The notes under the pieces are model-generated. The model was given only the letters and a program-made list of their open reading frames with translations, ran no database searches and had not been told where the DNA came from. Below are positions 4,001-43,699 of a stretch of DNA of 64,000 bases, one piece after another. How positions within the stretch are numbered: the first letter of the stretch is position 1; every line of letters starts with the position of its first letter. The position numbers and the translations under genes were made by a program. The DNA is from Psammoneis japonica (taxonomy: Eukaryota). The stretch is from the NCBI GenBank assembly GCA_008632985.1, contig QPGO01000036.1:396182-460181 (forward strand), read 5' to 3'.

Positions 4001-4609
4001 GCATGCCTTTCTTTGGAGTCCAAGCAAGGACATGGGTGGCCAAAACACATGCTGCTTTCTCAGAGCCAAGGTGGGGTGGGTGCCTTGAAGAACACTCCAT
4101 GCGCAGCAGCCATGTTCAAAAAATGTGTTGCAAACAGCCATTTTGAAAGACCAGGAGCATGCTGTTGACACTGAACAAGGTTTTGATGTCACAGGCTGGC
4201 ATGAGCTGGTACATCCACAAACAATGTGACAGAGTTCCCTGGCAGCAAGCTGCAAGAGCGAACTCACCCTTTTGGTCCCTGACTTGACTCTGGTGTCATG
4301 GCTTTGAGGGCCAAATGATGCCACCGGCAAAACCCACATTTTCTTGTTTGGTTTGCATTTGGAGAGTTGGCTTGTGTGGAGATGTTCTGTCTCTCCACCA
4401 GCTTGTCACTGTGCTGGTTGCCAAATCAACATCTTGCCATCAACAACAAAAATGTTGCTTGTTGCTGCAACTTGGTGGTGCCTTCATTGTCGCTTTTGTG
4501 TCTTTTTTTGTTGGTGCTGATGCTGTGCATGAGACTTCTCCATCTCTGAGTTCTGCTCTCTGCAGGGCAGGGGGTTTGCAGGCCTCTCGGCACTGTGCAG
4601 TGTAGATTC

Positions 4610-7400: not shown

Positions 7401-7707
7401 GCATCATCCTGTGCGCGAAACTGCTCTGACAGTTGTTGCATTTGTGCTTGGCACTCCCTGCTTTGCTCATCTTGCTGTTGCTGAGTGGAGGAGGGTTCTG
7501 GGTTGTCTGCACCATTTGGATCCCCATGATTCGAACGGGTTGTCATTGGTGCTGACATCACAAGCGTTGTCACATCGGCTTTGTCATCGTTGCGGTGGCA
7601 TCAATGGACATCGGCAATTGATTGGCATGGTCCGCAGGCACCAGCGCCGGTTCTGCATGAGACACAATGCACAGGCTCAGATGCAAGCTCTAAGAACTTG
7701 CACTTGT

Positions 7708-7865
7708 GAGTCAAAGCAGTCATGGGAGTCATTGCACAAGTCAACCAATGAGTCATTTCACAGGGCAACTCAAGTCACAGTCAAAGTCATTTCAAAGAAA
7801 CGGGTGTTGACCATGGTCACAGTTGCAGTCATCATCTTGTCAGACAGTCATCAGTCAAGTCACAG
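7708..7865. repeat. Cluster of AGTCA/GTCA motifs, likely hAT subterminal repeats
   Basis: More than ten (A)GTCA copies in ~160 bp just upstream of the minus-strand transposase. hAT ends typically carry short repeated transposase-binding motifs. Confidence 0.45.
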
Positions 7866-7899
7866 TGCAGTGGGTGCAATTCTGAACAGACTGACACAC

Positions 7900-10800
7900 C
7901 CCACCACTGAATCACAATTCTGTGCACACTCTCATTGAACCTGCCCACATGTTTTCAATGCCAGGTCCTCCGCAGAACAGCCAACCACCATGGTGTCTTC
8001 TTCCACCACTGATGGCAGCCACACCCCTGCTCTTCCCAATGATTCCACCATGGCAGATGAAGCTGCTGTGTGGACAACTCATCCCTTGAGCCTGCCAACA
8101 AGCTGACCAAGTGTCAGGTTGAAGAGATTGCCATCCGATTCAAAATTTGTGGCCCTGAGGCATCGTGTGAGCCCACAACCCTGATCACCACTCATCTGCA
8201 AGTCTCACAACAGATTCTCTTCACTTGCCACAAGGATGTCAAAATCCCAGACAACCACAACAACGAGATCACAAATGTCAATGTGGCAGATTGGGTTTCG
8301 TCTTTGCAGCATGAACGTCACTTTGGGATGTCCACCACACGCAGTGGCGACAAACACCCCGTTGCTCATCACTCATGCCATTGCATCCTCACCAAAGTTC
8401 CTCTTCGCGACATCCGATCTCATCATCACATCCAAAGCATTTTGGATTTGAACAACATGGGCATGAAACGCCATTTCTGGAATGAATCTGACACTGATGC
8501 TGCCAACTGCATTGCCACGGCAATGAAACATGCTCCAATTGACGAGGCTGCCAAAATGTTTCTCAGTGATCTCTTGGAGAGTTTAGGACCAAGATGTCTC
8601 AGTTTTGGCTGGTGCCCACCTCTGTCCATGCAGACAACAACGGCATTGCCACTCCCTTGTGCACAACAACCTTTGCAATTGAAGTGAAACAGGATGAGTG
8701 CCATGCTGCAAGAAAAGTCTTGTCACATGCTTCAAATGAGCTTCCGACCCACATTGTCATGGCAAAAACGTGACACCTGTCACCGTTGGCATTTTACAAT
8801 GCAATCAAGACCCAAGCTTGTCACAATGACAACACATGCGTGATTCCTCTGTTGTGCACGTCACCCGACATGATGTTTTATTTTGGCGACAATCCAAAGG
8901 CTTTAAAAGGAGTCCAAGCCATTTTTCCCACCACTTTGGTTAAAGGACGGCACAATGTCTTGGTCAATTGTGCTGACTTCAAATCCGCGAGAGCTGCAAT
9001 CTCCACGTGCATTTTGAATTTGATCCCGAGCCTCCTCAAAGAATCCTGTCCTTCCCCTCCCTTTCTGGATCATCCCCAGGTTTCTGGTGCATTTGACGAG
9101 CAATCAGACATGAGCAAATCTGTTGTGTTGGCCAGCATTCGGAGTCTTGAATCTTTAACTTCTTGGACGTCTCCCCCCCCTGACAGATGCTCAAGCTTCC
9201 AATGCAAACTGCCCTCTGCCTGCTGCTCATCCTGGCAGAGGTCATGCAGGACAAGGTCCTGTTCCCGGTTGCGGTGCTTCCCAGAGTTCTCCAGTTCCTC
9301 CACAGATTTTCACCCAACTCACTTCTTGCACGCCTTCAACCTTTGGTTGTTCTGGACATCCAGGTCTTAATTCTCCCCAATGTTCCTGTGCTCAAGCTGC
9401 TCAGTCTGCCACCAGTTCCTCCCTCACGTTGACACAAATGGCTGAAGTGCAACAAACTTTGTCCAAGATGCAAGAGAAAACTGACAAGGCTCCGGGAGAT
9501 CTTCGTCAACAGAACTCCCAGGACATGGAAGCTTTGAACTCTACATTCGCCAAACAACACACCAATGACATCACTGCATTGCAGTCACAGCATTCTCAGC
9601 AACTGGCAGGAATGCAGGCGCAGATGAATCAGATTGTTCAACTGTTGCAAGCCAATCAGAGACTGCTCAAAGCTCCACCAGAAAACAACCAAATGACATG
9701 GAAATGCCAGATTGGTCCAGCAATGGTCACAACAAGGAGAAGGATTTTTAGAATGGGGTTGGACTTTGCCGCCTCCACCNNCCCCCCCCCCCCCACAGAC
9801 AATCAGGCACCCTCCAGACATCCCCCCAAGAGATGCGACTCTCACTCTTGCCCACATTTTCTGTTGCACATCTCGACACCGCTGATTCGCTCCCCTCTCA
9901 GCATCCAATGGCACACATTGCTCCAAGCCCCAGTCTTCTCCTTGGAGGAGCATGGCCCAACCATGAGCAGCAAAGTTTACAGTGCATCTTCTGTCCAAGT
10001 TTGGCAGTCCATTCTAGACGGCAGAAGCAATCACCTCCCTGCCAATCGCCGCATTGATTTTTCCCGCCTGCATTCAAACAAGTCAATTTGGCATGACATC
10101 AAGCCAAAGCTTTCCCATCACACCAGATTGCACACCTTCAATGCCAACAGTTGCAAATTTGATAAAAGGGGTGGAGACATGTTGAGCTGCTGCCAGATTG
10201 CCAATGAGATTCAGGCTGATGTCATCGGCATCTCTCAGAAGTTTGTCTGGATGCTGTGCAGTGCGACGTTCTCTCACCTTCTTGATCGGCTGTTCAAAAT
10301 GTGATGAGCCATGGTTGCAGCACATTTTCCTGCAGCTCTGCTGCTTTTGCCACTCGAAGCAAACTTGGAGGCACTGCCACCATTTTGGAAATTCCATCTC
10401 CGCTGGATGTTGCAGTGTCAAGAATCTGATCCGTTGGGTTGCTGGTCCATCCAAGTGTTCAATGGCCAAAACGGATTGCAGGTCATGTTCATGTCGTGCT
10501 GTTGGGTTTGTTTGAAGAATCAAAAGGCACCTGGTTGCACTGCTGCACATGCACAACAAGCACCACTGCTGCGCCAACAAGGTTGTCAAAACACTGATCC
10601 CCAGAAAGCCTTTTGCTCGGATCCATCTTGGCTCCAGGAATTTCTCACAGACAGCAATCACGAGGTCATTTTATTCGGAGACTTCAACACGGACTTCACG
10701 GCTGACACTGAGTCCCTTGCTTTGCTTGCACAGCGATTTAATGTGTCCAATGTTCTGTTCAACTTGATGGGTGACACGGAATTTTCTACCTGCGCTCAAG

Positions 10801-12520
10801 GTTCTGAGCAACTCAATTGTGTTCTCGCTGCCCCAGGTGCTTTGGCTGCTGCTCACTTCGGTGGATCACGTCAGATCATCACACTTGCAACGTTGATTTT
10901 GACACATTGGCTCTGTTTGGAAACCCTGCTGTTGACCTGCTGAAGGCTTGTCATTGTGACATTCTGTCTTCCTCCAAACCTCAGGTGACAACGCATCTCA
11001 AAACTGTCGGACCCATGCTGACCAGCCACAATGTTCTGTCTTGCTCACAGGCTCTTCTTGATCTTGACAAACTGGACCATGAGTTGGCCAAGCAATTGGA
11101 CAGAGACCTCTTGCAATTCTCTTTGGCTGCAGCAAAGAAATGCCAAGCACACCGTGAGCCAGAATGGTCTGTTGAGCTTGCTCAGCTTCAACACAGAGTG
11201 TGCATTTTGAGCCGCGTCATGTCCATGATGTGCACTCACATTGATCGCATCCACCATGTCAGAAACATTTGGAATCAAATTGAGGGCTCCTTCATTGTTC
11301 CTGAGACTGTGGCTGAATGTCAGGCAGCTTTTTGCAAGGCCCAGTGGGGCTGCCAAAAGGTGGCAGCAGATGGCATTGCATGCAGAGAATGTGAGACGAC
11401 AGAGAAGATTGCATCCTTGGAATTGGAAGGCACCAAGGCATCCAGAAGGAAAGCAACCATCCTGCGCATCATTGGAAAAGCAGAAGAAATCAAACGTTTG
11501 TCCCGCAAGATCAAGCGCTGCAAGGCAGACACCAGTTTGGGAACAAATGGTGTCCAGGTGCCCTGTGACCCCTCAGTGAGCCCAAAAGAGTGTGATGAAT
11601 GGGTCACCATTGATGCTCCAGTGGACGTCTCTGCTGCTCTCCGCCTGCGCAATCAAAAACACTTTGGACAGGCCCACGGCACTCCTCCTGCTGTCCCTCC
11701 CTTGTCAGTGGATTTGGGTTGTGTTGGTGATGCAATCTCTCTGCTGATCTGATTCTTGACGGTGAATGTGACGCTGATCAACTCAAAGAAGCCACCTCGC
11801 TGTTTGTGCTCCATCTCAAATTTCACTTCTGCCTCCATCAAGTCAGGACTTCACCTGGGCCATTGGAAAGCCATGTGCGCTCTGCACTCCCACTCTCAGG
11901 CTGCTGCCCCGGACGGCGACCCCACCGAGGAAGACTGTCAGCATCTGGATGAGGTGCAACATGCCCTCACTCAAATGAGGCTGAACCCACTGAACTGCGC
12001 TCCATGCTGGGGACATTTCTGTGACCAATGAAAAGACATCGTCAATGTCATGATCTTTAAAGAGGCTGGGAACAACAAGATGAACCACTGAGAGTCATTC
12101 ACATCCATGAGGCTGACTTCCAGCTCATCTCCAGTGTCATGTGTGGTGCTCCCTTGCTCAGAACATGGAGCAATGCAAGCTTTGCAATCCTGGGATGTGT
12201 GGTGGTTGTCCTTTTTTGAACGCTGACACCCCCGTGTGCCTTGAGGAGTTGATGCTTGCTTTTGGTCGGGTCTCCAGAAAGACAGCCATTCACAGCGACG
12301 ACGATTGCACCTCCTGTTGCGATCAGAACATTCCAGCTCCAGCTGCTCTTGAGAGTTGCAGCGGCAGCATGCCAAGAGAAGTGACTCAAACAGCGAACCA
12401 CACCTTGGAGCAAGCATGGCACTGGTTGAAAACTGCCATTGGCTCATCCGACACGCCCCATTCCCATTCAACCGACTCTCCAATTTGTGGCACAGGGCAA
12501 GGCAGTGGGGTCTCTGGGAC
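7900..12520 (+). mobile_element. Non-LTR retrotransposon (APE endonuclease + RT, resembling diatom Ambal-type LINEs), degenerate and truncated within RT
   Basis: ORF1-like region ends in a coiled coil (9429-9690). APE motifs: FNANS...QADVIGISQ, SDPLGCWS, VILFGDFN, FSTCAQGSEQLNCVL, SDHH. RT motifs: SGLHLGHWKAM (cf. SGRHLGHYKAL), IVNVMIFKEAGN, RVIHIHEADF, DDDCTSCCDQ (cf. DNDAxACYDR), PICGTGQGSG (cf. PIYGTGQGS). Similarity stops at ~12515. Confidence 0.85.
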
Positions 12521-14271
12521 CAGCACAACAATGCCATCTATGGCCATGACTCTGAGACCAGCAAATCAGCACAGAGGAGGGACACGAAGGCTGAGGTCAA
12601 GGCTGTGCATTCTCGATCTGACGATTGCTTTTGGCCAAAGATCAGCAGAACTGCTCGACTCGGTTGAAGAACATCTGATGCACTCCACTCACAGGCTCGC
12701 AGTTGGTTGGCCATTGTTGGACCGACATTCAAATCCAGCATCCGTGAGGCAAAACGTTTGGCAGTGCGAGGAACACGCGCTGTCGCCAGTTGCTTTGGCG
12801 CGGCATCACCTGATGGTGATGCCATTTCAGGCTGATCGCCACATGCCCCTGCCGCGCGCAAGGTGTGCTGGGGGTGTGGGTTGGCTTGTTGCCGGAGTTG
12901 CGGGGCGGAAGCGTGATGGCACCTTAAATGTGGATGTTTTGTTTTGGTCCCACCACTGCCACTGAATCGATTATTTTTGCCACACACATGATGTCGTCGG
13001 CATCTTTGAAATTTTCTCGCACTTTCCAAGCACTTCCTGATGTTTTGTCGGCACTTTCTTCTTGAATCGAAATAATTAGCCATACAATGAGTCGAAGTGA
13101 AAGCGTTGGAACAACACGTACCGTACGGTAGTACATATATACAGGAATATACGTTTGATTTGAATCTGGCGATGACACTTCGCCCCATCGCTGTCTCAAA
13201 ACCAAGCCACTGTAGAACCGATCGTTATCTCCAAGTTGTGTCTCCACATGGCATGTTGACTGGATGAGGCTTAAAAAAAGGAAATGTCTAATGACGCGGA
13301 AAGTAATGGCTTGACAGCATCGACAACAACGTGGCCGCTCCTGCTCAGGCCACATTTCTTATCTTGGTGACGCCACCAACAACGCGGCCGTTCCTTTTGG
13401 CACCAATATTTTCAACGTTACTGCGCCAACAGGATCCGATGGCAGGCCTCCTCTACATCCTAATCGCCGAAATGAGGAGGATCAAGAGATGGGTTTTTCC
13501 TGATTCAAGACCTGTTCAAGTGATTGCTTCTTCTTGTGGCTTCTGGTCGTCAAGTTGGATCAAATAGAATGGCTGGGTTTAAAAAAAAAATATCCCATGT
13601 AGCAGCCAAACGAGTGCTATGAACTTGCTACCAGTTACCGGTACTCCAAATTTTAGACAACATGAACGTTTCCGTTTCATCAAGGATGATGGTCGCGGCA
13701 TCGTCGTGAAACCCCAAGCTATATAAATCGATGGCAAAAAATACAATGGCTTCGATTGTGCAGTACAGCGAGAATTTCAAATGTCAATCGACGCCTTAGA
13801 CAATGGGCCGTGTCATCTAGCAGCCGACAGCATCAAGGGTCTTCAACGAGCAAGGAAAATAGCGTAGACAATGTGAAACAGTCAGTGGCGGAGACTCTCG
13901 AGACCATTGATAACTCGAAGGACTCTGTTTTCAGGGTGCAAATAGATCTACAGACAGCGACGGTGGAAATAATTTGAGCCTGGGATAGGAATGTAGCTGA
14001 AGGACCCGAGCTGGCAATGAAACGGAACTCTAGCACAGGCCACGATCGACGCATAATGGCCGCCTTGATCGAAACCCCCCTAAGTCTAATGAAAGTCTCG
14101 CCAGCGAAATGATAGAAGTATATCAACCAAGAATCTGGCGAACGAATTTATGTCTCGGAAGTATTGTTGCCCCAGTAAATGAAAGGGTGTTACCAAAAAC
14201 TCTACCATGCAAACCACGAGCTAAGGAAGTAAGTCGGCGACCAACCAGAATTGAGTTCGAGTATCCATGTA

Positions 14272-16317
14272 TCATTTTTTATTCATGTCTTTTCGAAGGG
14301 CTCGTGCCACTTTGACGGCTCCATGACGGGCACCCAACAAGTTGAGGGCATCGGGTCCTAGGGCATGGGCGGCAAGGGATCCCAGAACAAAGCACCGTTG
14401 TCGCAAAGCTTGTTGCCACGCACGAGTATCATTGTCCTTGTCATTTTCCTTTGCTGTACCCCACGACAAGTCGTGGTCGTTCAATACCGGCAAGCCTCCC
14501 GCTACGGCAATGGGCAACTCTTGTCGGAGTGCCATCAACGCTGGATACTTGTCAAGGATGTTTTGGGCTCCGGTCGCCAGTATAATCCGATGAAAGCTAC
14601 CACTCAAAGGCGGTTCATCGTCATGCGCGGCACAAACACTACTGCCACCCTCATATGGATGATTGGTTTGAAACGAGACATGGAATTGACCATCCGTCGG
14701 ACACCAGTCCACCTGTTCGATACTGCTTTCTTCCAAAATCGAAATGGATGACTTGTCTTGCAAGGCCTGGACCATTTCGGGCGGGACACTTCCACCCTTT
14801 CGAGCTTGTTTGAGAAATGCCAGTCGTTGGTTGGACGACTCTTGCTTCCAAAATTTATCGAGACATTTGCCACGTTGCGGGCCCATCCACGCATTGTCCA
14901 AATCGAACTGGCGTTGGAGTAATTTGGACCGTTGCAGCAAGGTGACTTTTGTACTCTTATTGCATTGGGATGATGATGCCAATAACATGGCAACGTGGGC
15001 ACTCGTCAGACCGCCACCGACGACTAGAATGTTTTCCGACAACGACGTGTTGGTTTCCGTGGTATTAGTACTACACTCTTCCTCGTGTTGTTGCTGCTGC
15101 TGTCGTTGCAGTAGCCATGGCACAATTTCGTGTGCATGGAGAATCGCATCCGAAGGATAGGGTCGGGTGGAAATCATCGTACTGCCACTCTGCTGCTGAC
15201 AGGTATCTAAACGCAGACGTTCTCTCAAATCTTCTTCCCAATCGGGAATGCAGTCGGATTGAAACTGTGGACCCATGGCACAAACGACCCGGCGCGTCTT
15301 GACGCATATGGTTGAGGTCGGTGGTGTGCCGGTGGTGGTTGACGCCGATGATGATTCTTGTTGTTTTTCTTCTTCAGTCGTCGCCAATAGTTGCAGTTCA
15401 AAGTACGGCTCACCCTCCTCCTCTCCACCCTGAGAGGGCGGCGGAGGACAGGGGCGGATGGATTGTACCTGCACCTGACTGTGTACCATATCTTGAATGC
15501 CATAGGCCTTGGTGAGCAACTCATGGTATTCCAAAAACAATTCATTGGTGGGCACTTGGTAGGGTCCCTTGAAGGATTTATTTCGTTGCGTCAAGTGAGG
15601 CATTGTCACCAATCCGTAGTCATCCTGAATGGTATCGGAGTAGAGTTCGAGCGATCGGTGATCGTAGGGATCGCAGTGTGCATAGATGTGTGATCGCAAG
15701 TGAGGAATTTGGAAGGCTTGAAAGCCATTCTTCCAGTTTTGCAACCATCCGGTACTGGAACTGTTACTACCACTATCCTCCTGCTGTTGCTGCTGATCCA
15801 GCACCAAGACGGATGTGCGGAGCCGCACCAAGTCAACCGCCGGCGCTTCTTTGGAGGAATCATGATGAAATCCTTTATTCTTGCGATGAAGCAAGACACT
15901 AGTAGGGCCCTTGGAAAGGCGCTTCAGATGTTGTCGGACTTGTACGAGAGGTCTCATTTTGGACGTGTAGGCAGATATGGCGTGTCGCTGCTTGTCGGTC
16001 AAGAGGTCTGCGTCGGGCTCAAGCAAGCGCAAGACGAGACTCAATGCGTGCGGACCGGCGCCGATAATTACCAACTCTTTCATGTCCTCTTCTTCCATGC
16101 CATTGTGATTTGCGGTATTGTCATGCCCTGGTGCTTCCGTGGAAGTAGATGCATCTTTCTTTACAGCACTGCTTCTTTCTGTAGCACTAGTGAAAATCGT
16201 ACAACACTCGCAAATGGGAGCAGTCTGGTCTCGACAAGGACGAGACGAACGATCAGAGTCGTTGCTGCGCCGCCGCCTCCTGGACGAAGCATGGGACGGC
16301 GGTGGAAACTGCGTCAT
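14272..16317 (-). CDS. FAD/NAD(P)-dependent oxidoreductase (lysine/ornithine N-monooxygenase-like fold)
   Basis: Intact ~681-aa ORF with normal Tyr content. Two Rossmann motifs (VIIGAGPHAL, ILVVGGGLTSAH), IILATG, and C-terminal LGPDALNLLGAR. First ATG at 16317; the ORF track starts at a TTG at 16329. Confidence 0.8.
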   Translation of the reverse strand: MTQFPPPSHASSRRRRRSNDSDRSSRPCRDQTAPICECCTIFTSATERSSAVKKDASTSTEAPGHDNTANHNGMEEEDMKELVIIGAGPHALSLVLRLLEPDADLLTDKQRHAISAYTSKMRPLVQVRQHLKRLSKGPTSVLLHRKNKGFHHDSSKEAPAVDLVRLRTSVLVLDQQQQQEDSGSNSSSTGWLQNWKNGFQAFQIPHLRSHIYAHCDPYDHRSLELYSDTIQDDYGLVTMPHLTQRNKSFKGPYQVPTNELFLEYHELLTKAYGIQDMVHSQVQVQSIRPCPPPPSQGGEEEGEPYFELQLLATTEEEKQQESSSASTTTGTPPTSTICVKTRRVVCAMGPQFQSDCIPDWEEDLRERLRLDTCQQQSGSTMISTRPYPSDAILHAHEIVPWLLQRQQQQQHEEECSTNTTETNTSLSENILVVGGGLTSAHVAMLLASSSQCNKSTKVTLLQRSKLLQRQFDLDNAWMGPQRGKCLDKFWKQESSNQRLAFLKQARKGGSVPPEMVQALQDKSSISILEESSIEQVDWCPTDGQFHVSFQTNHPYEGGSSVCAAHDDEPPLSGSFHRIILATGAQNILDKYPALMALRQELPIAVAGGLPVLNDHDLSWGTAKENDKDNDTRAWQQALRQRCFVLGSLAAHALGPDALNLLGARHGAVKVARALRKDMNKK

Positions 16318-17424
16318 GGTTGTTGACAAACTGCTTGCTTTTTCTCATCAAAAAAGAAAAATTGTGTGATGAGAGCAGATTCAGAGCGAGCAGCGAGGGC
16401 ATAAAAGGCCTTGGAAGGCCATTGAAAAGGCTCCACTCAGGCTCTTCGGAGCGGCTCTTTAGAAGTCTGGGAGCATTCATCATCATTTGTTCATTGACAA
16501 GCATGATGACGACGACCAATGGAGAGATGGACGAAGATGTGCTCACAGAGCCGATGAGCAATGAGCGCACACATCACACGATGATCATTGTTGCCCTTGT
16601 GAGCAACAACAGTCACATGATGACACAGCCCTTTTTGTGAGAGTGTCTGGCTCTGTTTTCTTTGTTGTGCTGCTGGTTTTCCTCTCCTCCATGACAGAGG
16701 GGGGATCAGCACAGGTTTTGCATGGCTCCGTTGGGAGCTCCTGCAACTGATGAGGCACCAAACTGAGTGCATTTTGACCAACCTTCAGTCACCCGTTGCT
16801 TGGATGCCCCCCCCCCCGTGTGGCTCCCGCTGCGGTGTTTCCTGCAACCCCCCCCCCCCCTGAGGAGCTGAAGCATCAGTGCAGAACTCCTGAGTTTGAC
16901 TTTGCTTGCCATCCACAAAACAATGCAGATCACTTCCAGCTCTTCAATTCCTGCCTTCTGTCTGTGCTGAATTTCATGGGACTCTGCTCCTTTTCACCCA
17001 CAATGGATGCTCCAGCTTGACTCAACAGCAACAACAATTTCCGCTTGCATCTTCTCCCAAAAACTTTGTTTTCTATCACCTCTTTCTTCCCACAATTTTT
17101 TGTTGTTGCAACAGCTGCAAATGCATGACAAACAAATTTGGAGTCACCACAGACCCTCCCTTTGGTGGACCCAGCCAGCAGCATTTCTGTTCACTCCTTT
17201 GCTCCTTTGCCTGGCTTTGTTGTGTGCTCTAAAAACTTTTGGTTTCTGACACCTAAGTCTTCTCCAGAGTTTCTCCAAAACCCTGCTTTGAACATTGAAT
17301 GTTCTCAAATCAGCAACTCACTTGTGGAGCAACTGCTGCTGTGGTGCGTGGATTCACCGCCGGCGGCTCTTCAGGCCCCCAAATCCAAAGCAAATCTGCT
17401 CTGTGCAGAGGCTCTGCAACAGAC

Positions 17425-18400
17425 GAGCCTTGGAACACTCAACTGCTGTTCTCAAAGTGTTCCCTGGGTCCCACCAGGGACCCTTGGCACCCTCAACTTG
17501 CAACTGCTGCACTGGTCAGTGGCATCAGGGTGTTCTTTCATTTTTGAGTTGGCGGGAGCTTTTCAACTCTCACCCTGAGCATGGATGAAATGACTGCTGG
17601 GGGCACAGCTGCACCAGATGAGCCTTGCAACACTCAACTGCCATTTTCAAAGTGTCCCTTGGATTCCCCCAAAAGCTCTCAATGCCCTCAGCATGCAGCT
17701 GTTGTGATGGTCGACTGCACAAGGGTGTCCTTTCACTCTGGAGGAGTTGGGTGCCTCAGCTCTCAATCCTCTGGTGTGGACAAGTGACTGGGGGGCACAA
17801 ACTGCACAAGATGATCCTTTGCAATGCTGGGTGGCCATTCTCAAAGCAGTGTCCCTGGGTTCCATCAGAGACCCTCAATGCCCTCAGCCCGGGGTTGTTG
17901 TTTTGGTTGGAGGCATCAGGGTGTCCTTTCACTCTGGAGTTGGGGGCCTTGACACTCACTCTTCTGGTGGTGACAAAGTGACTGGTGGCCACAAATGTGC
18001 CAGATGACCCTTGCAACACTCCTCAGCTGCAGCTGTTGCAGCATTGCCATGAGGTTTTGCCAGAGACCCTCAATGCCCTGCTTGGCCAGCAGTTGTTGCA
18101 CACACATTGGTTGGCTGCATCAGGGTCTTCTTTGTTCACTCTGGAGCTGGGAGTTCTTCCAGCTCTTGTTGTGGTGTGGTTGAAGTGGCTGGGGGCACAA
18201 CTGCACCAGATGAGCTTTGAAACACTCAACTGCTGTTCTCAAAGTGTCACTTGGTTCATCCTGAGACCCTCAGGAGTGCTCTCAGCCTGCAGCTGTTGTG
18301 TCAGTTTTTGGCGGCATCAGGGTGTCCTTTCACTCCGGAGTGGGGAGTTTCAGCTCTCGTTCTGGTGTGTGGATGAAGTGACTGGGGGCCAAAACCACTC
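17425..18400. repeat. Degenerate tandem repeat, ~195-bp unit, about 5 copies
   Basis: Recurring blocks gagccttg(g/c)aacactcaactg...caaagtgt...gcatcagggtgtcctttcactctggagttg...gtgactgggggcaca, starting near 17425, 17620, 17813, 18006 and 18212. Confidence 0.8.
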
Positions 18401-18619
18401 TCCATCATGAGTCTGTGCCTTGACCAATGAACGCACACTTTGAACACCTGCTCACCTCATGGACTCTCAGAGAACACAGACAGATGGTGTGTTTCTGGTG
18501 CCCTCTGGCACCATGGTTGTTTTGTGCAGAAGTCTGTGCAGCAGAAATGTTTTTTTGCACATGCAGAAACATGCTAGAATCTGCAAGAGCACCACCAGAG
18601 CACATCACTCACACCATGC

Positions 18620-19360
18620 AACTCCTCTGGTGGAGCTCACATCAGGTGATGCGGGTGTCAGTCTCACATTGGATGTGGCCTCTCTCTGCTCAGGGGTGTG
18701 CAAACTCATCTTGCCATGTCAGAAAGCATGTTCATGGAATGACATGTCATGCTCAAAGCATTTTGATGCTGAAGTCATTTTGGCTCTGGCACCCAAGGGC
18801 ATGGGTGCTGTGTTGTGATTGGCAAGGCAGAAGCAACAATGATCAGGAGCCTTGGAGACAGCAATGATGGCTTTTCGCTTCAGCAACTCAATCACCCCAA
18901 AAATCCAAAGAAAGGAAAGGTCCATCGTGGGAAACAATTGGTCCTGAAATTTGGGAGTGTGCAGATGGCAAGGCAGGTGTTTTGGTGGTTTTTTTCAGCA
19001 AAAGAGGAGCTTCTGTTGTGGGGTGCAGTCAGCGCTTGAAGCCACTCAACCCGGCTCTTCAAATTGCAGCTGTGGAGCCATCCAAGTCAGCTGTTCTCAG
19101 TGATGGCAAGCCCAGCCCACACAAGATTCAAGGTGCAGTCATCCAAGTGTTGGGCAAAAGTGTTGCAGCCATGGCCAGGATGCTGGCCACCAACGAGGGA
19201 CTCTTTTGCTGAATTCCCAGCGAAGTGGCGGCAAGCAACAGCAGCCACTGATGTTGCCAAGCATCCTAAAAACAAGGGGAAGAGCGCGATTGTGGTGATT
19301 CCCATTTTTAGAGAATGCCACCTCAGCATGGCTCTGTTTCACAATGTGTGGGATGAAGCT
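18620..19360 (+). pseudogene. cysK: Cysteine synthase (O-acetylserine thiol-lyase, CysK-like) pseudogene
   Basis: Frameshifted pieces match CysK in order: VELTSGDAG (cf. IEPTSGNTG), FDAEVILALAPKGMG, IGKAEA, LQQLNHPKNP, LKPLNPALQIAAVEPSKSAVLSDGKPSPHKIQG, MARMLATNEGL, VAKHPKNKGK...IPIFRECHLSMALF (cf. PSFGERYLSTALF). Confidence 0.85.
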
Positions 19361-20708
19361 GTGTGGCACTCAAGGCAGAGTGGAAGTTTTGGTGATCAAC
19401 TCATTGTGTCTCCCAGTGCTGGTGATCAATTGCCACATGGTGTCTTGCCACAAGCAGTGCACATGTGCACTCCAACTGTGCCATTTCTTGTGCACACCAG
19501 TGGCAGCCCAGATTGAACTGGTCATTGCAAGCTGCCACAAGCAAAAGGATGAGAAACATGAGACCATTCTGGTGTTCACCAGCAATGATCCCCTGGCATG
19601 TCATCTCTTGAGCATCTTCCAACAGCACTGCCTCATTTTCCAGGCCTTGAAGCCATTTGCTGGTGTGCTTGGAGATTGCAACAGTCAAGATCAATGAAAT
19701 TGACAACAGTCCTCATGGCCAGACACAAGACACTTCTTGCAAATGTCAGCGCTTGGGGAACTCTACACATGCAAAGGATGTCCATTTGCAGCTGCTGAAA
19801 GATCTTGCAATGACGTGTCTTGAGGTCTTCCAATCACTCAAGAACAATGAGCTTGACATGGCTGTCATTCTTGCTGTTCAACAAGTTTTGTGTTTTGATT
19901 TGTGCTCATTGTTGTCCTTTCTAATGACTGCACTTTAACAAATCACACAGACTCGAGTCATGAGCCAACTTGTGAAGCACATTCTCAAGTTTGTAGAGGA
20001 CAGCATGGAAGATGCGCTTGGTGGTGGAGCACAAGGCGATCCCAATCATTTGCAGGTAAAATTGAATGACAGTCGGCATCTCTTGCTTCTTCATCAATTC
20101 ATGTCTCGTTTGCATTGTTCCTGGCACAAGCAGTGGTGGGCCAGGCATTGGAATCCCACCCCTCTACAACTCGGGTCAGTTTTGGGAGAGTGGGCCATGC
20201 GTGACACTGCTGCATGCAGAGCAGTTTTGGAAGACTGCTTTGCACTTTTCAAAGTGACACAATGGCAAAAAAACAGAAATAAAAATGCAGTGATGCTGTG
20301 TGCAATCCCGCATGAACTCGAAGATCAACGTTGGAATGTGGGAGCAGCAGTTCTTTCAGCGACTCCTCCACTGCCAGTCTTGTTCTCTCGTAGCCTGCTG
20401 CAAGTGAGTGTGCCAAATCTAAAGTTGTGAGAAAGGCAGAATCAATTCGACACACTTGTGGAGCTTTTCATGGGACGACTTTTCCTTTTTGGATGCACAC
20501 AGATGCTTGAGCCACGTCCACTGCCACTGGCAGTTGCTGACTGCTTTTCAATCATGTCCAGGACTTGAGCCAAGCAATGCCTGTCAGCATTTGCCAGAGC
20601 CACTCCACCATGTCCAGGTCAGACATGAGCCAAGTCAACTGCAAGGGGGGGGGCTCATGCAACTGAGTCCACGCTTTAGCATGAATGAGTCCACTGCCAG
20701 TGACGCGG

Positions 20709-21140
20709 TGCAGCATGCCTTGCCACTGGACAACACGGCGAGACCATGCACAAGCCCCTTGCATGTGGCAACGCAGTGTTGTTGACACGCACCTGGGAAG
20801 CATGACAACAGGAGGGCGTGGCTCCAGGTCTCAGGCAATTCCAGAAGGATGCTAAGAGAGCATCCGTGTGAAGCACACTGGCCCATCGTCTGGCCCACGA
20901 TGGCAGCGTGATTCCACACGATGACATCACTCGTGCACAGTGCATGATGGCTTGATTCGCACGATCCACAATGCGAACGCACGATCGATTTGATGCGATC
21001 CAAATGCGAACGAATGGGGATTTGGCAAGATTCCCCATTCACACGATCCCATTTTCTCTGCTCTAAACTAGCTCATAATTTTCACAACGACAAAGTTGCA
21101 ACACATCTTCTTTTTCAGCGCCTGGCACATGCACAGGGCA
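20709..21140 (+). repeat. 5' LTR (432 bp)
   Basis: Aligns without gaps to 24541-24972 with about 34 mismatches by manual alignment. Confidence 0.95.
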
Positions 21141-21235
21141 CAGTGGTGTTGCTCCCGCATGTTGTGCGAGGTGACGAAATCTACAGAAACAGAAACTGCG
21201 AAATGTTGGCAGGACCGACAAATCTTAAAACGACC

Positions 21236-22278
21236 ATGAAGAAGCAGATTGAGCCGCCGATTCCGTTCGCACGGCCGGAGAAGAAAGAGCTGCAGCAGGG
21301 CGAGCACCAGACGTTCAAGCTGCGTGACAACCCCACTGATCCGGACAGTCCAACGCACGAGATGGGCATTCCGCACCTTTCTACGGCTGCATGCGAGACA
21401 CTCCCAATCTTTCTTCGCAACGTGGATCGCGTGCACGAAGGACAAAACATCACGACCGGGCCAGCGAAATTTGCCCTCATGCGTGACCTGCTGCAGGGCG
21501 ATGCTCTGACGTCATTTAACAATGCCGCCGACAAGCAGGCATCTCAAACCAACGCCACGTACACAGCATGCGTTGCGAAGCTAAAGGAAAGCATCTTCCC
21601 ACATGGGGCGGTGCTGTTGCAGAAGCGTTGTCTGAGGCGCTTCATGCGCAAGCCCGCAGAGGTTTCTGCTCGTGACTACGTCGCGAGGGCTGTTGAAATT
21701 AACGGCTGTGTCTCTCAGTTTCCACCCATGACGGAGGATGGAGAAGCACCGGCACCATTGCCCAATGACAAACTGTGCGATGTGTTCGAGTGCGGTGTGC
21801 CGAACGCATGGCAGAAGTTCATGACGCTGCAGAATTTTGACCCGTTGGCACATGCTGTCGCGAATTCACACAGTTCTGCGAGCGCATCGAGCAGGTCGAG
21901 CTTGCCGAAGGTAACCAGGACCAACATGCCAAGGTTCCATGCAAGCGGGGACGTAGAACGGACAATCCTGAGTCGTTGATCACGACCCAACGGAACACCC
22001 AGAAGTCGTGCATGCTGCACAGGACTGACTGTGGACATCATACAGAGGATTGCCGTCAGCTCAAGCACCACGTGAAATGTGTCAAGACTGGACATTCCAA
22101 TGACGGAGGCAGCAAGCCTGATGCAAAACCTCGGAATGAGGAAGACATCAATGCTCTCATCGGATCGAAGGTCGAGGAGTTCTTTGCCAACACTCAGAAA
22201 AAGCGCAAGGCACGCGAGGAGGAGCTTGATCACTTCCGCGACCTCAACTTGAGTGATTCCGAAGATTCGGACGCCTGA
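21236..22278 (+). pseudogene. gag: Gypsy gag-like ORF, frameshifted, with CCHC-like knuckle
   Basis: MKKQIEPPIPFARPEKK...LLQGDALTSF...QKRCLRRFMRKP..., then CMLHRTDCGHHTEDCRQL in the next frame. It sits between the 5' LTR and pol. Confidence 0.75.
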
Positions 22279-22410
22279 GAAGGGGGAAGACACGACACAG
22301 GCAGTTTTAATGCATCAGATGAATGCACGAATGAACAACTGAATTACCATCATACACGTGTTGTAGGCCAATCCCGCAAACGAGTTAAAAAGACTCATCT
22401 TGCTCCAATC

Positions 22411-24500
22411 TTGTTTGTGGCTGTGAATGCCAAACATGGCAAGGGCAAGACTCAAACCATTGAGGCACTGCTAGATGGTGGCGTCGTCGTGACGAAAGGC
22501 ACCTGTGAAGATCACCTCAACAAACTTGAAGAAGTTTCATTGAGGGTCCAGAAAGCAGGACTAAAAGTTAACGCAACTAAATCTCACTTCTGTCAAACCC
22601 AATTAGAACACTTGGGTTGTCTGGTCAACAGAGACGGAATGCGACCAACACCCAATGAAGTCGACGCCATTAAGCGAATCGCGACCCCAACCAACAAACG
22701 CGACCTGCGCTCATTTGTTGGCATGGTGAACTGCTGCCGCGACACGTGGATCAGACATTCTGAAGTCTTGGCTCCGCTGACACGACTCGTAAGCGAGACT
22801 GTCAAGTGGGAGTGGACGTCCGTTGAAGACGAGGCGTTCGAAACCATTAAACGGGTGACATCGGATGATGTTTTGTTGTCACATCCTGATTTTAACAAAC
22901 CCTTTGAGATGCATGCCGATGCCTCTAAATGTCAATTGGGAGCAGTCACATCCCAAAACAACAAACCTGTCGCCTTTTACAGCAGAAAGCTCAACAGTGC
23001 GCAATTAAATCATGCAACAACGGAGAGAGAATCACTCGCCATTGTGGAGACGTTGAAAGAATTTCGAACGATTCTCCTTGGTCATCGTGTGATTGCACAC
23101 ACTGATCATAAAAATCTCACGTGCAAAGTGTTCAATGCCGAGCGCGTCATGCGCTGGCGGTTGACATGCGAAGAATGTGGTCCCGAATTACGCCATGTCA
23201 AGGGCACCCACAACCCAGTCGCTGACGCTCTTAGTCGCCTTCGACTGACACCCAGCTTGCCTTCCGAGGCCAATCCGGATGTAAAAGACACTCCATCGAG
23301 TCATCCTTTGCATGAAGCTTTTAATGCAGACGTGCAAGATGAGACATCTCTGCCCATTGGCTTCAAGCGCATTCAAAAAGCACAACAAAAGGACAAGCGC
23401 CTGCTCTCACGAGCTGAGGACTCGTCCGACTGCTCCATTCGCGCGCATTGTGGGGGAGGGTCATCACGACAGTTAATCTGTCATAAGGACAAAATCGCAG
23501 CACCACAGTCATTGCAGGTTCTGCTAACTGAATGGTGCCACGAGACACTGTGTCATCCAGGTGAGACACGTGCGGAAATGTCTGTTGCCCAGCACTTCTG
23601 TTGGCCTGGCATGAGGTCTATGGTGCATTCTACGTGCGTCAAGTGCGATCGATGCCAGAAGACAAAACGCCGAATGCAGCATTGTGGGAAGCTGCCAGAA
23701 AAGGTCGCAGAGATAATTCCATGGGAGACTCTGTGCACAGATGTGACAGGGCCATGTAAAATTCAAAGACGCGGAAAGGACACTTTGCAATTGTGGGCAG
23801 TCACAATGATTGACCCAGCAACCGGGTGGTTCGAGATTAAAGAAGTGTCCACAAAATGCGCAGACGTCGCAGCAAACGTCGTGGAACAAACATGGCCATG
23901 CAGACATCCGTGGCCAACCCAGGTGGTTCATGACCGTGGGACAGAATTTATGGCAGAATTTAGCCAGATGATTAAAAATGACTGTGGGGTTTTGAAGAAA
24001 CCCACAAGTGAACGGAATCCACAGGCAAATGCCACAGTGGAACGTGTGCACCAGACACTTGGCAACATGGTGCGTTCCTTTTCAGTGCAGGACATGGAAC
24101 TGGACGAAGATGACCCATGGAGTGGCATCCTCTCCGCAGTGGCCTTCGCCATTGGAGCTGCGGCACATGCGACCACGCGTGCAAGTCCCATGCAATTGGT
24201 CTTCGGACGCGATGCGGTTTCATCCATTGCCCATCGTGCCAAGTGGAAGCACGTGGAAACCAGAAAGCAGAAGCTTGTCCACTTAAACAGCAAGCGTGAA
24301 AATCAGAAACGCAAGGAGTGTCAACACACCGCAGGGCAATTGGCACTTGTCAAACAGGAACAATCCTCTAAGTGCGGTTCTGACAGCTGTGCAGGACCCG
24401 CCAGAGTTGTCCGTGTGTGTGACAATGGCACGTTGCGTGTCCAGAACGGAGCACTGACAGATGCGTGCAATCTACGGCAGATTGCACCCTGTCACCAGCA
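22411..24500 (+). pseudogene. pol: Gypsy pol remnant (protease stub fused to RT thumb, RNase H, integrase)
   Basis: ALLDGG, LKVNATKSHFCQTQLEHLGC, FEMHADASKCQLG, AFYSRKL, HTDHKNL, NPVADALSRL, HxxxxH...CxxC, and integrase core (CTDVTGP, HDRGTEF, PQANATVERVHQTL). Confidence 0.92.
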
Positions 24501-24540
24501 AGACATCCTGTCACTTGACGGCCCTGATCATGGGGGAGTG

Positions 24541-24972
24541 TGCAGTGTGCCTCGCCACTGGACAACACGGCGAGACCGTGCATGAGCCCCTTGTGCGTGG
24601 CAACGTGGCGTTGTCAACACGCACCTGGGAAGCACGACCACAGGAGGGCGTGGCTCCAGGTCTTGGGCAATTCCAGAAGGATGCCAAGAGAGCATCCGTG
24701 TGAAGCACACTGGCCCGTCGTCTGGCCCACGATGGCAGCGTGATTCCACACGATGACATCACTCGTGCACAGCGCGTGATGGCTTGATTCGCACGATCCA
24801 CAATGCGAATGCATGATCGATTTGATGGGATCCAAATGCGAACGAACAGGGATTTGGCAAGATTCCCCATTCACACGATCCCATTTTCTCTACTCTAAAC
24901 TAGCTCACAATTTTCACAACGACAAAGTCGTGACACATCTTCTTTTTCAGCGCCTGGCACATGCATGGGGCA
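24541..24972 (+). repeat. 3' LTR (432 bp)
   Basis: Follows the polypurine tract, matches the 5' LTR, and is followed by the GCGG TSD. Confidence 0.95.
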
Positions 24973-25293
24973 GCGGAAGAGTCCCACCAATCTCTGTGTT
25001 TGCCACCCCAGGAACACTGCCACTGGAGGGTTTGCAGTGCGAGCCCTGAGATGGATTCTAATGGGTTGGGTGCGAAGCCATGTCACACACAAACAAGAGG
25101 CAGGGTGCTCTGCAAAGGCAGATGCTCAACGCAATTCGCAGCGCACTTTCCCACATGACAATGCACACTGCGACAGGAACAATCATGCCCGTCTGTGCCA
25201 CATGGGCCCCCAAGGCCTCACCTCCTGATGGAAGGAGCGGGAAGTTTTCCACAGTCACCTTCCATCCCACAAATCCAAGCCTCCATTCGTCCT

Positions 25294-26010
25294 TTACAAC
25301 TTCCACCAAAATTGATGAATCTCTCGCATTGAAACAAACTTCCGCTTTCCGCACATGGGATCGTCGTGTTCCTCAACCGCCGTGATCACAAACAAAGCAC
25401 CAGGTCGAAAAAGAATTTCCCACTCACTCTTGAATTTGGATTGTTTCGTCACGTTCACACCCGATCGACTTTCAATCTTGAACAGTGCATTCTTGCTTGT
25501 GCCAAATTTATTGCAAGCAACATGCTTTCTCAGAGAGGCACTCAAAAAAGCCAGGTCCATGAAGGTGGCTCCAGGATGCAACGAATTGAAACGTGCTCCA
25601 CTGATGTTGGCACCCCGGTGGACTGCACCTTGAAACACTGGACAATTCCGCGACTTGCCCATCGCCTTGACAACAGCATCCACACGGGCTTTTATTTCTG
25701 GACTCAACTTTCCAGAGCGCAAGGCAGAATTCATCTGCTTGCAGCCACCACCCGTGCAATCCTTCATTGCCTTTTTGTCAGTCTTGCGGTCGAATGTCAG
25801 CCGTTTCTTGACAGCATTTTTCAAAAGTGCTGGCGCTCGCTTTCGTGTCGACTTGACTGTTTTGCGCTCCACCAAACAAGCCTTCAATTCCTCCACGACA
25901 CCGATCCGTGCGAATGCGAGCTTGATCCAAAAGTGCAGTTCCCGAGTTTTTGAAAGCATCGCCTGCCTGCGAGCTTCTTCTTCTGCACCGCCATTGCACG
26001 TGATGACCTG
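25294..26010 (-). pseudogene. ADP-ribosyltransferase (R-S-E class, VIP2/C3/ART-like), hypermutated
   Basis: KDCTGGGCKQMNSALR (cf. YT...Y..MN..LR), VHRG (cf. VYRG), FLSAS (cf. FLSTS), KSEWEILF (ExE). The frame is open, but the conserved Tyr/Thr changes are single TA->TG/CA substitutions. The 5' end is uncertain. Confidence 0.8.
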
Positions 26011-26880
26011 TTGAGAGATGCAAGGAGACAACGAGTTTGTGAGTTTCTTTTGGGTGGGCGACAGGGAAAAATGAACGAAAAACACAAAGAACAGACAGGT
26101 CGAGATGCCCATCTCCAACGGTCCAAACACAAAGGTTCGGCAAGGCATCCGCTGAGCCACAAAAGTTTTGGTGGAAGTGCAAGCAGCAGCCAGTCCTTTC
26201 TTTCGAACCAGCCCTGACTCAAGGATGCCGGGTCTGTTCTCGATTGACGCACAAGAAGAACGTGGCACTTGTGTGGGTGGGCCGCACCCGATGAGCATCA
26301 TGGGTGAATGCCCCTCGTCCCAATCCAACACTTTTTTTTTGGCAAGCACCAGCGTTCAACCGCTGGCCCGCATCAATGTCGAACGTTCGCACCGCCATTG
26401 TCTTTCCGTGCAATCACAGACGAAAGAGCAACGGCCAGCACTGACTTCCCTTCACAAAGTGCCTGTTGAACGAGAAGTGAGAACAAAAAGTGTCGTGTTG
26501 TTTCCCGTGTTGATTGATGGGGCGAGCCTCCGAAAAGCGCGAGCTTCGCATTGGGGCTGTTTGATTTTTGTGATAGACACATTTGCCCGTTGCGTCCTAG
26601 TAGGATAACTCAGTAGAATGGACATCACGATTCAATTGCGCTCGCCAAGTTTTTCAGCACGAGCTGACGTCACATTCGATTTGAGTTGATTAGTTGGACT
26701 TAAATCATCCGTCTGTCCCAGAGCGTTTTGCGAACAGTGCGATGCGCGCCGCAGATTCCAAGATGCCGCACTCAACTTTGCAACACACCTCAACCTCCTG
26801 CTTGATAGATTTCCGTTTCCGTCACCTCAATCACAATCACTGTATCTTGTGTTTTCTTTCAGTTCATCACCTGATACAAC

Positions 26881-39589: not shown

Positions 39590-39830
39590 CAGCATAGTTA
39601 ACGCTGCGATTCTCTTCTGAATATACGTATTTCTCAGTCTGGCATCGGAGTTGCGAGAAACGAAGAACCAAACTAGAAAGAAGTAACCAGCATACTTAAT
39701 GCTGCGCGTCTTGAGAATACCCATGTTTGTAAGTCTGGCATGCGAGACATGAGCTGTTGAATTGCTTCGGCATTTTCAGGATCTTCGCCATATTTGGAAA
39801 GGCAGTTCCGACAAATCACAAATCTTCAGT
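39590..39830 (-). pseudogene. Diverged copy of the 3' end and 3' flank of the gene at 61163-62302
   Basis: Aligns by eye with ~61025-61260 (agtctggcatcggag..aaacgaagaacca..ctagaaagaagt, agtctggcatgcgagacatgagct, gcagttccgacaaa). Encodes ...CRNCLSKYGEDPENAEAIQQLMSRMPD. Confidence 0.8.
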
Positions 39831-40549
39831 CGTTTCAAACCGGACAATGTCGGTGCGGGTCCATTGATGCCATGGAAAAGTATCCACGGTCTGGACAGTC
39901 AGTAGTCGTATTGTTGTTGGCATTTCCATAATAGTCCAGCAAATCCAGCGCCAGACCATTGTTAAGGTACAGACCTAGGACAACTGGATTGAGTACGTAC
40001 GAGGCCCACAGCAACGGAGTATCACGAGCAAAATCAACAAGATGACTTGAAATCGAAAAAAACACGGGTTCTTTTTGATTTTTTGGAATAGGACTTGTTA
40101 TGCGGTCATTCCAAGTGTCGACGAAATGCACTTGGCCAGACGTAGGTTGAGAAAGCAATTTGATAAATTTCGCGGAAATGCTCCCGAAAAGAGAATTCCG
40201 GGACCTCGATACCCTACATGGCACACGATCCGATACGAGTGGATGGATTGGAGGTATGAGTGAAACAGGTAAAAGTAGAAGCATGTGTCAGAGCAAAGCA
40301 TTCTCATACTTTGCTGCAATCAAATGCTTTTCTGTGACGCTCAACGCGTACCACTGAAAAGGTTCCTTTTCACTTTCTTCGTTGGGAATATAATATCAAT
40401 TGACACAAACGACACGCCAACGAATCCTGTCGACTACTGTGATCTGTGATGATCTCAATCCGGAGCTTTGTCATCGTCATTACGCTGAATAATGCCGTGC
40501 TTGTGGCCTAGCTTGTGCATACACAGGAGTGTCGTGGCGTCGTGAGTAC

Positions 40550-40715
40550 TTCTCTCTCTACTCTCTACTACTCTCTACTCTCTAGCTCTAGAGTAGGAGT
40601 AGAGAGTAGCTCCACTCTAAGCTCTAGCTAGAGTAGAGAGAGTAGCTCTAGAGTAGCTACTTCGTACCATAGCTACTCAGTAGTCTACCGGTAGATACTC
40701 TAGATAGCTAGTAAA
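40550..40715. repeat. CTA/TAG/AG-rich low-complexity tract
   Basis: ctctctactactctctactctctagctctagagtaggagtagagagtagc...taccggtag. It is very TA-rich and lies immediately left of a TA-depleted domain. Confidence 0.75.
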
Positions 40716-43265: not shown

Positions 43266-43560
43266 AAATCCTGTTTCTCATCCGCAACGATGTGCAATAG
43301 AGTCCCACGTGCCCTTTTGGCTGTCACTGTCATTTCGGCATCTCCACACATCATTGCCTTCAGAAACCATGCAGAGTCGATGCTGATGACCAACATGCAA
43401 ATGCCTTTGCCCATTTTCATCATGTGCGGAAGGGGCTCGGGCACCAAACCTTCCCTGGTGCCTCACCTTTTTCTTTGGGCACGCCATTCTCATGCTGTTT
43501 TTGTGATGATGGAGACCCATCAGCACACACCACCCAGTGCATTCAGTCGCAGGGCCCCGC

Positions 43561-43614: not shown

Positions 43615-43699
43615 TTCCTGGTCCAATGACATCATGACACAGGAGAGGGACGGATGGCATGGTTTCCCACTCCCAGCATGTGTGTGGCTGCCATTGATC

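Follow-up and report, generated by a model that had tools for sequence, protein, structure and literature searches.

Transitions at TpA and CpG in the terminal repeats of a Ty3/gypsy retrotransposon and in the repeat-rich blocks of a diatom genome window

Introduction

The closest described counterpart of the mutation pattern reported here comes from the chlorarachniophyte Bigelowiella natans. According to the part of the preprint available to us (Mettrop et al., 10.64898/2026.01.13.699255), two integrated viral regions in mutation-accumulation lines of this alga mutate about 1000 times faster than the remaining genome, with 230 of 231 changes being A>G or T>C, all at TpA, and this hypermutation is confined to some of the lines. 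The same source describes clusters of 1-kb windows in the B. natans genome that are poor in TpA and rich in CpA plus TpG, an enrichment of reverse transcriptase and DDE domains among low-TpA coding sequences, and a proposal, made without demonstration, that an ADAT2-like adenine deaminase is responsible; the available text makes no mention of diatoms, CpG or long terminal repeats (LTRs). Here we describe a pattern of this kind in a diatom, Psammoneis japonica, where it is recorded by the LTRs of a Ty3/gypsy retrotransposon at positions 20709 to 24972 of a 64,000-nucleotide stretch (contig QPGO01000036.1 of assembly GCA_008632985.1, positions 396,182 to 460,181 of the forward strand). This whole stretch is called the window below, and all coordinates refer to it.

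A second described process also bears on the locus. In the sections of Hoguin et al. 2023 (PMC9998398) available to us, CG methylation of diatom transposable elements depends on DNMT5a, and many diatoms are reported to carry an uncharacterised RID-like DNMT4 (PMC9998398). No description of TA hypermutation in diatoms was found in the literature searched, which lies outside subscription journals.

Results

The two LTRs of the element, both on the forward strand, each 432 bp long and running from TG to CA (5' LTR, 20709 to 21140; 3' LTR, 24541 to 24972), differ almost entirely by transitions. A scripted ungapped comparison of 20708 to 21140 with 24540 to 24972 (433 columns, the LTR proper being the 432 bp from 20709) found 34 mismatches, 32 of them transitions and 2 transversions. 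At nine dinucleotide sites, CA in one LTR faces TG in the other (CA in the 5' LTR at seven, in the 3' LTR at two); 11 sites read CG against TG or CA, with CG retained by the 3' LTR at nine; and 3 sites read TA against CA or TG (20853, 21060 and 21076). No transition in the LTR comparison fell outside these swap, CG and TA contexts, and 20 CG and 2 TA dinucleotides are identical in both copies. The asymmetries between the LTRs, 7:2 in swap orientation and 9:2 in CG retention, are not significant (P=0.18 and P=0.065). These values reproduce exactly the length, the mismatch count and the four classes that a first-pass annotation had obtained by manual alignment.

Such a spectrum is not expected from scattered changes. 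In 20,000 simulations that scattered 34 changes, 32 of them transitions, randomly over the LTR, swaps averaged 0.49 and never exceeded 4, so that none of the 20,000 reached the observed 9, and mismatches in pyrimidine-purine steps averaged 17.7 with a maximum of 27, against 32 of 34 observed. Repeats elsewhere provide a comparison. A 235-bp repeat lying in gene blocks of the window (39593-39827 and 61027-61260, 83% identity) has 24 transitions and 15 transversions, with no swap among its 39 differences; other repeats, in the TA-poor blocks described below, have 4 and 5 swaps. Among 23 terminal-repeat pairs in related metagenome loci, on contigs that may be assembly chimeras, we counted 6 swaps in 510 mismatches, each in a pair with a divergence above 17%, and the 10 pairs at 90 to 97.6% identity had none in 102. 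The consequence for dating is as the first-pass annotation had claimed: raw LTR divergence is 7.9%, against 0.46% from the two changes outside the mutable contexts, an inflation of about 17-fold.

The element itself is a Ty3/gypsy LTR retrotransposon, present as a truncated, internally deleted and dead copy. Its LTR pair is the sole long direct repeat that a repeat finder and MAFFT recovered in 19500 to 26500, and its ends coincide exactly with 20709 and 24972. Between the LTRs, on the forward strand, lie a gag-like open frame (21141 to 21979; the reading frame starts within the LTR at 20948) that contains no tyrosine and found no match in a Pfam search, and a pol remnant (22279 to 24540, delimited by Pfam and by alignment to 120 homologues) whose domains follow the order expected of the group: RVT_1, represented by its C-terminal part, RT_RNaseH, the integrase zinc domain Integrase_H2C2 and the integrase core rve. 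The pol frame is open for 768 codons and runs into the 3' LTR as far as 24585, and a purine run read by eye at 24532 to 24538 on the same strand, two bases before the 3' LTR, resembles a polypurine tract. The element falls short of autonomous coding capacity: no protease was matched by Pfam within it, the N-terminal part of the reverse transcriptase is missing, with RVT_1 matched only from profile position 126, and 14 of 15 conserved pol tyrosines have been replaced. Its closest pol homologues are full gypsy pols of at most 59% identity, metagenome proteins on contigs of about 5 kb.

Copies of the family are abundant in one public sequencing run, in which a fraction of 0.59 of the words sampled from the locus occurs. 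At 80% likeness, 5164 run contigs matched the stretch, with a summed depth of 15,000 to 45,000 on the element against 60 to 125 on parts of the flanks; by this depth the family has hundreds of copies. Over all of these contigs, the positions that differ comprise 395 transitions and 36 transversions. As a separate observation, position 24589 (20757 in the 5' LTR) is C in both LTRs and T in all 45 matched family contigs; this difference, CC against CT and thus neither TA nor CG, is a private or subfamily variant older than the insertion.

The element is flanked by a matching 4-bp duplication, GCGG, at 20705 to 20708 and 24973 to 24976, and contigs of the public run preserve the empty site, with joints 20697>24975 (depth 69.8, shorter side 24) and 20705>24994 (depth 60.2). 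Both join the left flank to the right with one target copy, reading GTGG in place of GCGG, which confirms a true insertion. The empty site may represent the other allele of a heterozygous insertion or a paralog of the older repeat that hosts the element; we do not claim heterozygosity because the flanking sequence is repetitive as well (depth 1403 at 20564 to 20727), so the joints may be paralogous.

The alternative that survives best, improbable as it is, holds that the LTRs were already unequal at insertion, the element being a recombinant or gene-conversion product of two diverged family copies, so that its LTR differences would date from decay within the family rather than from the time after insertion. 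Its hundreds of diverged relatives, at the depths just given, would supply the material; many internal rearranged joints occur in the run contigs, and the element is internally deleted. Against this stand the flanking duplication, the empty-site form with its single target copy, and the presence of only 2 LTR differences outside hypermutable contexts. Were it true, the mutation spectrum and its origin at the DNA level would stand, and only the dating argument would change.

The coding region gives the direction of change. We aligned the pol frame to the 120 homologues and let the columns that at least 80% of them conserve stand in for the functional ancestor, excluding the first 100 pol residues, which span the deletion junction. 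The element copy was altered at 59 of 306 conserved columns, and the changes inferred there were TA>TG at 20 columns, TA>CA at 11, transversions at 10, multi-step changes at 9, ambiguous at 4, other A>G changes at 2, and TG>CG, CA>CG and CG>CA at 1 each. A:T>G:C transitions thus number 31 at TpA against 4 elsewhere. Conserved tyrosine codons, which contain TA, were kept at 1 of 15 columns, the other 14 having become cysteine (9) or histidine (5), and conserved CGN arginine codons were kept at 16 of 17, with 1 lost. Tyrosine-to-cysteine or -histidine changes are rare in the homologues themselves (0 to 2 each, and none in 89 of the 120). The dominant change in this copy is therefore loss of TA by A:T to G:C transition on either strand, and CpG loss is minor. 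The pol columns bear out the involvement of the two strands, which had been proposed from the LTRs, and show an excess loss of TA; the latter is also seen in the composition of the element, in which the observed/expected ratio (o/e) is 0.14 to 0.27 for TA and 0.8 to 0.9 for CG. In the 5' LTR the values are 0.17 for TA, 0.78 for CG, 1.76 for CA and 1.66 for TG.

The swaps could in principle descend from either TA or CG. Rates estimated from intact and single-hit sites alone predict 0.76 swaps from CG and 0.56 from TA, against 9 observed; as neither context predicts 9, one of them must be near saturation. A fit to three classes (intact, single-hit and swap) with all swaps assigned to TA gave loss probabilities of 0.84 for TA and 0.19 for CG and a log likelihood of -7.22, against -11.64 with all swaps assigned to CG. 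The TA assignment also agrees with the coding region, where TA loss is 14/15 against 39/46 in the LTRs (P=0.67) and CG loss is 1/17 against 11/62 (P=0.45). By arithmetic from the LTR counts and the fit, relative loss per site per copy is about 1.8 hits for TA, about 0.2 for CpG and about 0.002 for transversions. Other copies of the family point the same way. At swap site 20832-33, three of them read TG, TA and CA, and none reads CG; among 13 positions listed within the element, six at which the window has TG or CA have TA in 13 to 66% of the family depth. Since other copies keep TA where the element has TG or CA, most swaps would go back to a TA that was struck on one strand in one LTR and on the opposite strand in the other. 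The first-pass annotation had read each swap as two independent hits on an ancestral TA or CG; TA has now been seen directly in another copy at one of the nine sites, and for the remainder the case comes from rates and likelihood.

Plain CpG decay would instead have every swap site CG at insertion, deaminated on opposite strands in the two copies, with the TA differences incidental. CpG decay is certainly present: there are 11 CG against TG/CA sites in the LTRs, four more of the 13 listed internal positions have CG in 95 to 100% of the family depth where the window has TG or CA, CG o/e is 0.06 to 0.58 in the TA-poor blocks, falling to 0.06 to 0.2 in places, and the context of swap site 20783 favors CG. 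As the sole process, it encounters several difficulties. At the CG rate of intact and single-hit sites, nine or more swaps have a probability of 1e-7 where 0.76 are expected; the all-CG fit falls 4.4 log units short of the TA model; its CpG loss of 47/98 conflicts with 1/17 at conserved arginine codons (P=0.001); and it needs an ancestral LTR with about 49 CpG, an o/e near 1.7 by arithmetic. It cannot yield tyrosine-to-cysteine or -histidine changes or a TA o/e of 0.0 to 0.1, and TA is present in another copy at one swap site. CpG decay alone is thus largely refuted and very unlikely to be the explanation. CG at all swap sites with no excess loss of TA, which the first-pass annotation had named as the result that would overturn its reading, was looked for, and the locus shows something else.

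A sequencing or assembly artefact, in which modified bases at TA and CG are misread strand-specifically to leave random CA or TG in the consensus, has even less to recommend it. Strand-specific miscalls at palindromic modified sites would mimic both the swaps and the sharp domain borders; the window's letter at 21246 and 24589 is in no matched run contig, and only 0.59 of the sampled words of the stretch occur in the run. However, unbranched contigs of the run, at a depth typical of single copies, agree at every base with TA-poor stretches and with one swap site of the 3' LTR: one equals 20400 to 20638 (1 TA in 239 bp), and another, at depth 61.9, equals 24943 to 25300 (2 TA), covering the last 30 bases of the 3' LTR with swap site 24966-67. 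Across copies, the run contigs also carry TA, CA and TG in place of one another, at differing shares. Letters missing from the run prove nothing, as filters remove short repeat contigs.

The same signature extends well beyond the element, dividing the window into a mosaic. Gene blocks, intergenic spacers included, have TA o/e 0.4 to 0.9, CG 0.9 to 1.3 and CA/TG about 1.0 to 1.35. The other blocks, here called decayed, have TA 0.00 to 0.13 (0.17 to 0.21 in edge windows), CG 0.06 to 0.58 and CA/TG 1.5 to 1.9. One-kilobase windows are bimodal across the 64 kb, which places the decay in foreign or presumably silent regions, and TA and CG depletion are correlated (r=0.84, 64 windows). GC content is equal in the two compartments, at 0.48 to 0.50 in decayed 4-kb blocks and 0.48 to 0.50 in gene 4-kb blocks. 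Decayed blocks lie at 1 to 13000 (TA 0.00 to 0.13, CG 0.06 to 0.55, CA/TG 1.5 to 1.9), 16001 to 20704, the block into which the element inserted (TA 0.02 to 0.17, CG 0.11 to 0.60), 41001 to 49000 (TA 0.02 to 0.10, CG 0.39 to 0.58) and 56001 to 60000 (TA 0.00 to 0.21, CG 0.11 to 0.44). CA and TG are not clustered in one-strand tracts in the decayed blocks or the element (runs tests, z from -1.0 to 2.2), and there is no sign of processive one-strand action.

Directly beyond the element, a block at 24977 to 26400 appears to be at an early stage of decay, with TA 0.05 to 0.07 and CG about 0.8. It carries an open reading frame resembling an NAD:arginine ADP-ribosyltransferase (ART; 25294-26355, reverse strand) with no tyrosine in 354 codons, TA o/e 0.05 and CG 0.84. 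Run depth beside the frame is 779 (25156 to 25300), and the block is multi-copy sequence. The ART-like frame seems to be in an early phase of the same TA decay. Because the youngest blocks, this one and the element, are depleted of TA and retain CG, TA decays before CG.

The decayed blocks also hold faint remnants, all below or near Pfam cut-offs, of a hAT dimerisation domain (4863-5216, reverse strand, E 5.6e-4), a PLP-dependent enzyme (PALP; 18868-19209, forward, E 1.2e-6) and a 3'-5' exonuclease (44735-45223, forward, E 6.8e-4). Because decay covers these remnants, the process is not tied to reverse transcription. Editing of RNA by an ADAR-like enzyme, or deamination of cDNA during reverse transcription, can accordingly be dismissed as the main cause, with next to no probability left to it: an upstream U/T preference is typical of ADAR and ADAT enzymes (10.64898/2026.01.13.699255, in the part available), but both LTRs of an insertion are templated by one RNA, whose editing cannot make them differ, both strands have changed (20 TA>TG and 11 TA>CA), and DNA that is no retroelement, the ART-like frame included, shows the same decay. 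The earlier claims that the changes arose in place, on DNA, and are not RNA editing are upheld by these same observations.

Surviving TA is not a random sample. In decayed blocks it lies mostly in TTAA, of which 27 remain where gene blocks of comparable extent have 33, and in CTAA (ratio 0.32), whereas ATAC, ATAT, GTAC and ATAG are nearly extinct there (ratios of 0.00 to 0.02 to gene blocks). In the LTRs, 5 sites have TA in at least one copy, and three of these are of the TAA type. TTAA and CTAA contexts are refractory to TA loss.

Related loci from metagenomes, 79 in number and at 32 to 56% identity, served only as controls and supplied no outgroup LTRs. Most have TA o/e 0.6 to 1.0. Several are depleted of CpG alone; L012, L060 and L066 have CG 0.12 to 0.16 and TA 0.62 to 0.90. 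L062 (1-1518; TA o/e 0.19, CG 0.04) is the only one of the 79 with strong TA depletion, which it combines with loss of CG. Conserved tyrosines were checked in eight of the loci; L062 and L044 (1-1298), both with distant relatives of this pol, have cysteine or histidine at 4 of 7 aligned positions each, and the other six loci at 0 or 1. The signature goes with particular hosts and not with the element clade as such, and from L062 and L044 there seems to be at least one other environmental host with the same process.

Discussion

Taken together, the data make it probable that a single Ty3/gypsy insertion was changed afterwards, on DNA and separately in each LTR, by transition processes at TpA and CpG that operate in the repeat-rich compartment of the genome and not in gene blocks. 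The faster process would act on TpA by an A:T to G:C transition, on whichever strand of this palindrome is hit, and so yield CpA or TpG; the slower would convert CpG to TpG or CpA, as deamination of 5-methylcytosine usually does. Both would act in a compartment that is repeat rich and presumably silenced, sparing gene blocks. Most swaps would be ancestral TA hit once in each LTR on opposite strands, and equally many double hits in the same direction would be expected, invisible in the comparison.

Several points weigh against this account. Loss of TA in the coding region may partly predate insertion, if the source copy had already decayed. The public run may be the assembly's own source sample, in which case its agreement with the assembly is not independent. 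TA ancestry was observed directly at 1 of 9 swap sites, that of the other 8 being inferred from rates and likelihood. A homogeneous TA rate also fits imperfectly: a hand calculation from the fit predicts about 0.4 TA left unchanged in both LTRs, and 2 are seen, an excess that is eased because TTAA and CTAA contexts are refractory. By the same token, swap site 20783 would have been a refractory TTAA, and its ancestor may have been CG instead. Finally, the TA process is not general among hosts of the element clade, as only 2 of 8 relatives checked show tyrosine loss.

What the window itself shows is the signature, with its direction and dinucleotide specificity, its restriction to certain blocks and the loss of TA before CG. 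For the agent behind it, analogy with B. natans suggests an ADAT2/TadA-type DNA adenine deaminase directed at silenced or foreign DNA, our preferred candidate, though at less than even odds. The main alternative, with a lower probability, is that thymine at TpA is modified and then mispairs with G. Broader, and tentative, is the idea that diatoms, or this lineage at the least, run a TpA DNA-editing defense beside CpG methylation, by deamination of adenine or modification of thymine in silenced foreign DNA, homologous to the Bigelowiella system and part of an old immunity extending across the SAR supergroup. If that were true, both self-complementary pyrimidine-purine steps, TA and CG, would be erased from transposons, and LTR pairs would be a ready-made clock for the rate of editing.

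The likeness to B. natans, as far as the available part of the preprint allows comparison (10.64898/2026.01.13.699255), is close. In both, A>G and T>C changes occur nearly exclusively at TpA, leave TpG or CpA depending on the strand, and are limited to foreign or silent nuclear regions, and the excess is of similar order, about 1000-fold there and, by arithmetic, about 400- to 800-fold over the transversion rate here. The differences are also clear. The host here is a diatom, a stramenopile, rather than a rhizarian chlorarachniophyte; the evidence is historical, from an LTR pair, conserved codons and composition, whereas a de novo rate was measured there; TA depletion is near complete (o/e 0.00 to 0.13), compared to a Rho of 0.45 for the nucleocytoplasmic large DNA virus (NCLDV) region of B. 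natans; and CpG decay, a subject absent from the available text of the preprint, accompanies TA loss in the same blocks. Within the literature seen, the TpA process has been reported in one other alga only, to which the diatom case adds near-complete TA erasure, coupling to CpG loss and the sparing of TTAA.

Other known systems share parts of the pattern. As in the methylation-linked CpG decay of diatom transposable elements, CG has become TG or CA in repeat blocks and CG o/e stays near 1.0 in gene blocks, but CpG decay alone covers the minor part of the LTR differences (11 of 23 sites) and none of the TA loss. As in fungal repeat-induced point mutation (RIP), transitions in a specific context damage repeated or foreign DNA, raise the apparent divergence of LTRs and leave islands of distinct composition. 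In contrast, RIP turns CpA to TpA, creating TA and lowering GC, while here TA is destroyed and GC is unchanged, and changes in the RIP direction (CA>TA or TG>TA) number 0 at conserved pol columns. Hyper-editing by animal ADAR and APOBEC3 likewise concentrates deaminase-type transitions on retroelements, but those enzymes act on RNA or pre-integration cDNA and on one strand. The changes here affect both strands and follow insertion, where ADAR-type hyper-editing would be confined to the transcribed strand and fixed before integration, and remnants of DNA transposons and pseudogenes have been hit as well.

An LTR pair such as this one yields relative mutation rates without an experiment. If the pattern holds genome-wide, TpA-specific hypermutation of foreign DNA would extend to a second group of algae, one that is only distantly related to the first and is ecologically dominant, and what was a single-species curiosity would become a candidate for a widespread genome defense. 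LTR dating and repeat landscapes based on Kimura distance would be badly inflated, as they are by about 17-fold here, and TA and CG sites would need masking. Loss of TAA and TAG would open long spurious reading frames in all six frames, misleading gene callers, and conversion of tyrosine to cysteine or histidine would mislead both domain searches and gene callers.

Other features of the window

Per 1000 trinucleotides, decayed blocks have 1.9 TAA and 0.9 TAG where gene blocks have 8.0 and 9.7, a shortage of about 4- and 10-fold, and TGA is commoner in decayed blocks than in gene blocks. We found 90 stop-free frames of at least 110 codons, spread over all six frames, in four stretches that include some gene-block sequence (1-12000, 16001-20700, 40001-48500 and 52000-60500), and only 3 of the 90 have a Pfam match.

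The decayed block that hosts the element contains a diverged array of direct repeats (17414-18394) with a period of about 195 bp and about 70% identity between units, which Tandem Repeats Finder at score 80 missed, returning no rows. The array is too diverged and saturated to yield ancestral states.

Dinoflagellate-type 5-hydroxymethyluracil at TpA was considered as a candidate and set aside, as the spliced-leader motif gave 0 matches and the gene layout and diatom-like proteins point elsewhere; on hydroxymethyluracil in diatoms, nothing relevant was found in the literature searched, as far as its sources were available. The long intron-free reading frames of the window encode EDRF1-like, TPX2, TMEM65, INSIG and WD40 proteins and are closest to diatom proteins. 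Named matches to the EDRF1-like frame are all from diatoms: Fragilaria crotonensis (53%), Attheya, Cylindrotheca, Amphora, Mayamaea, Epithemia, Nitzschia and Thalassiosira. The genes of the window are intron-poor and lie on both strands.

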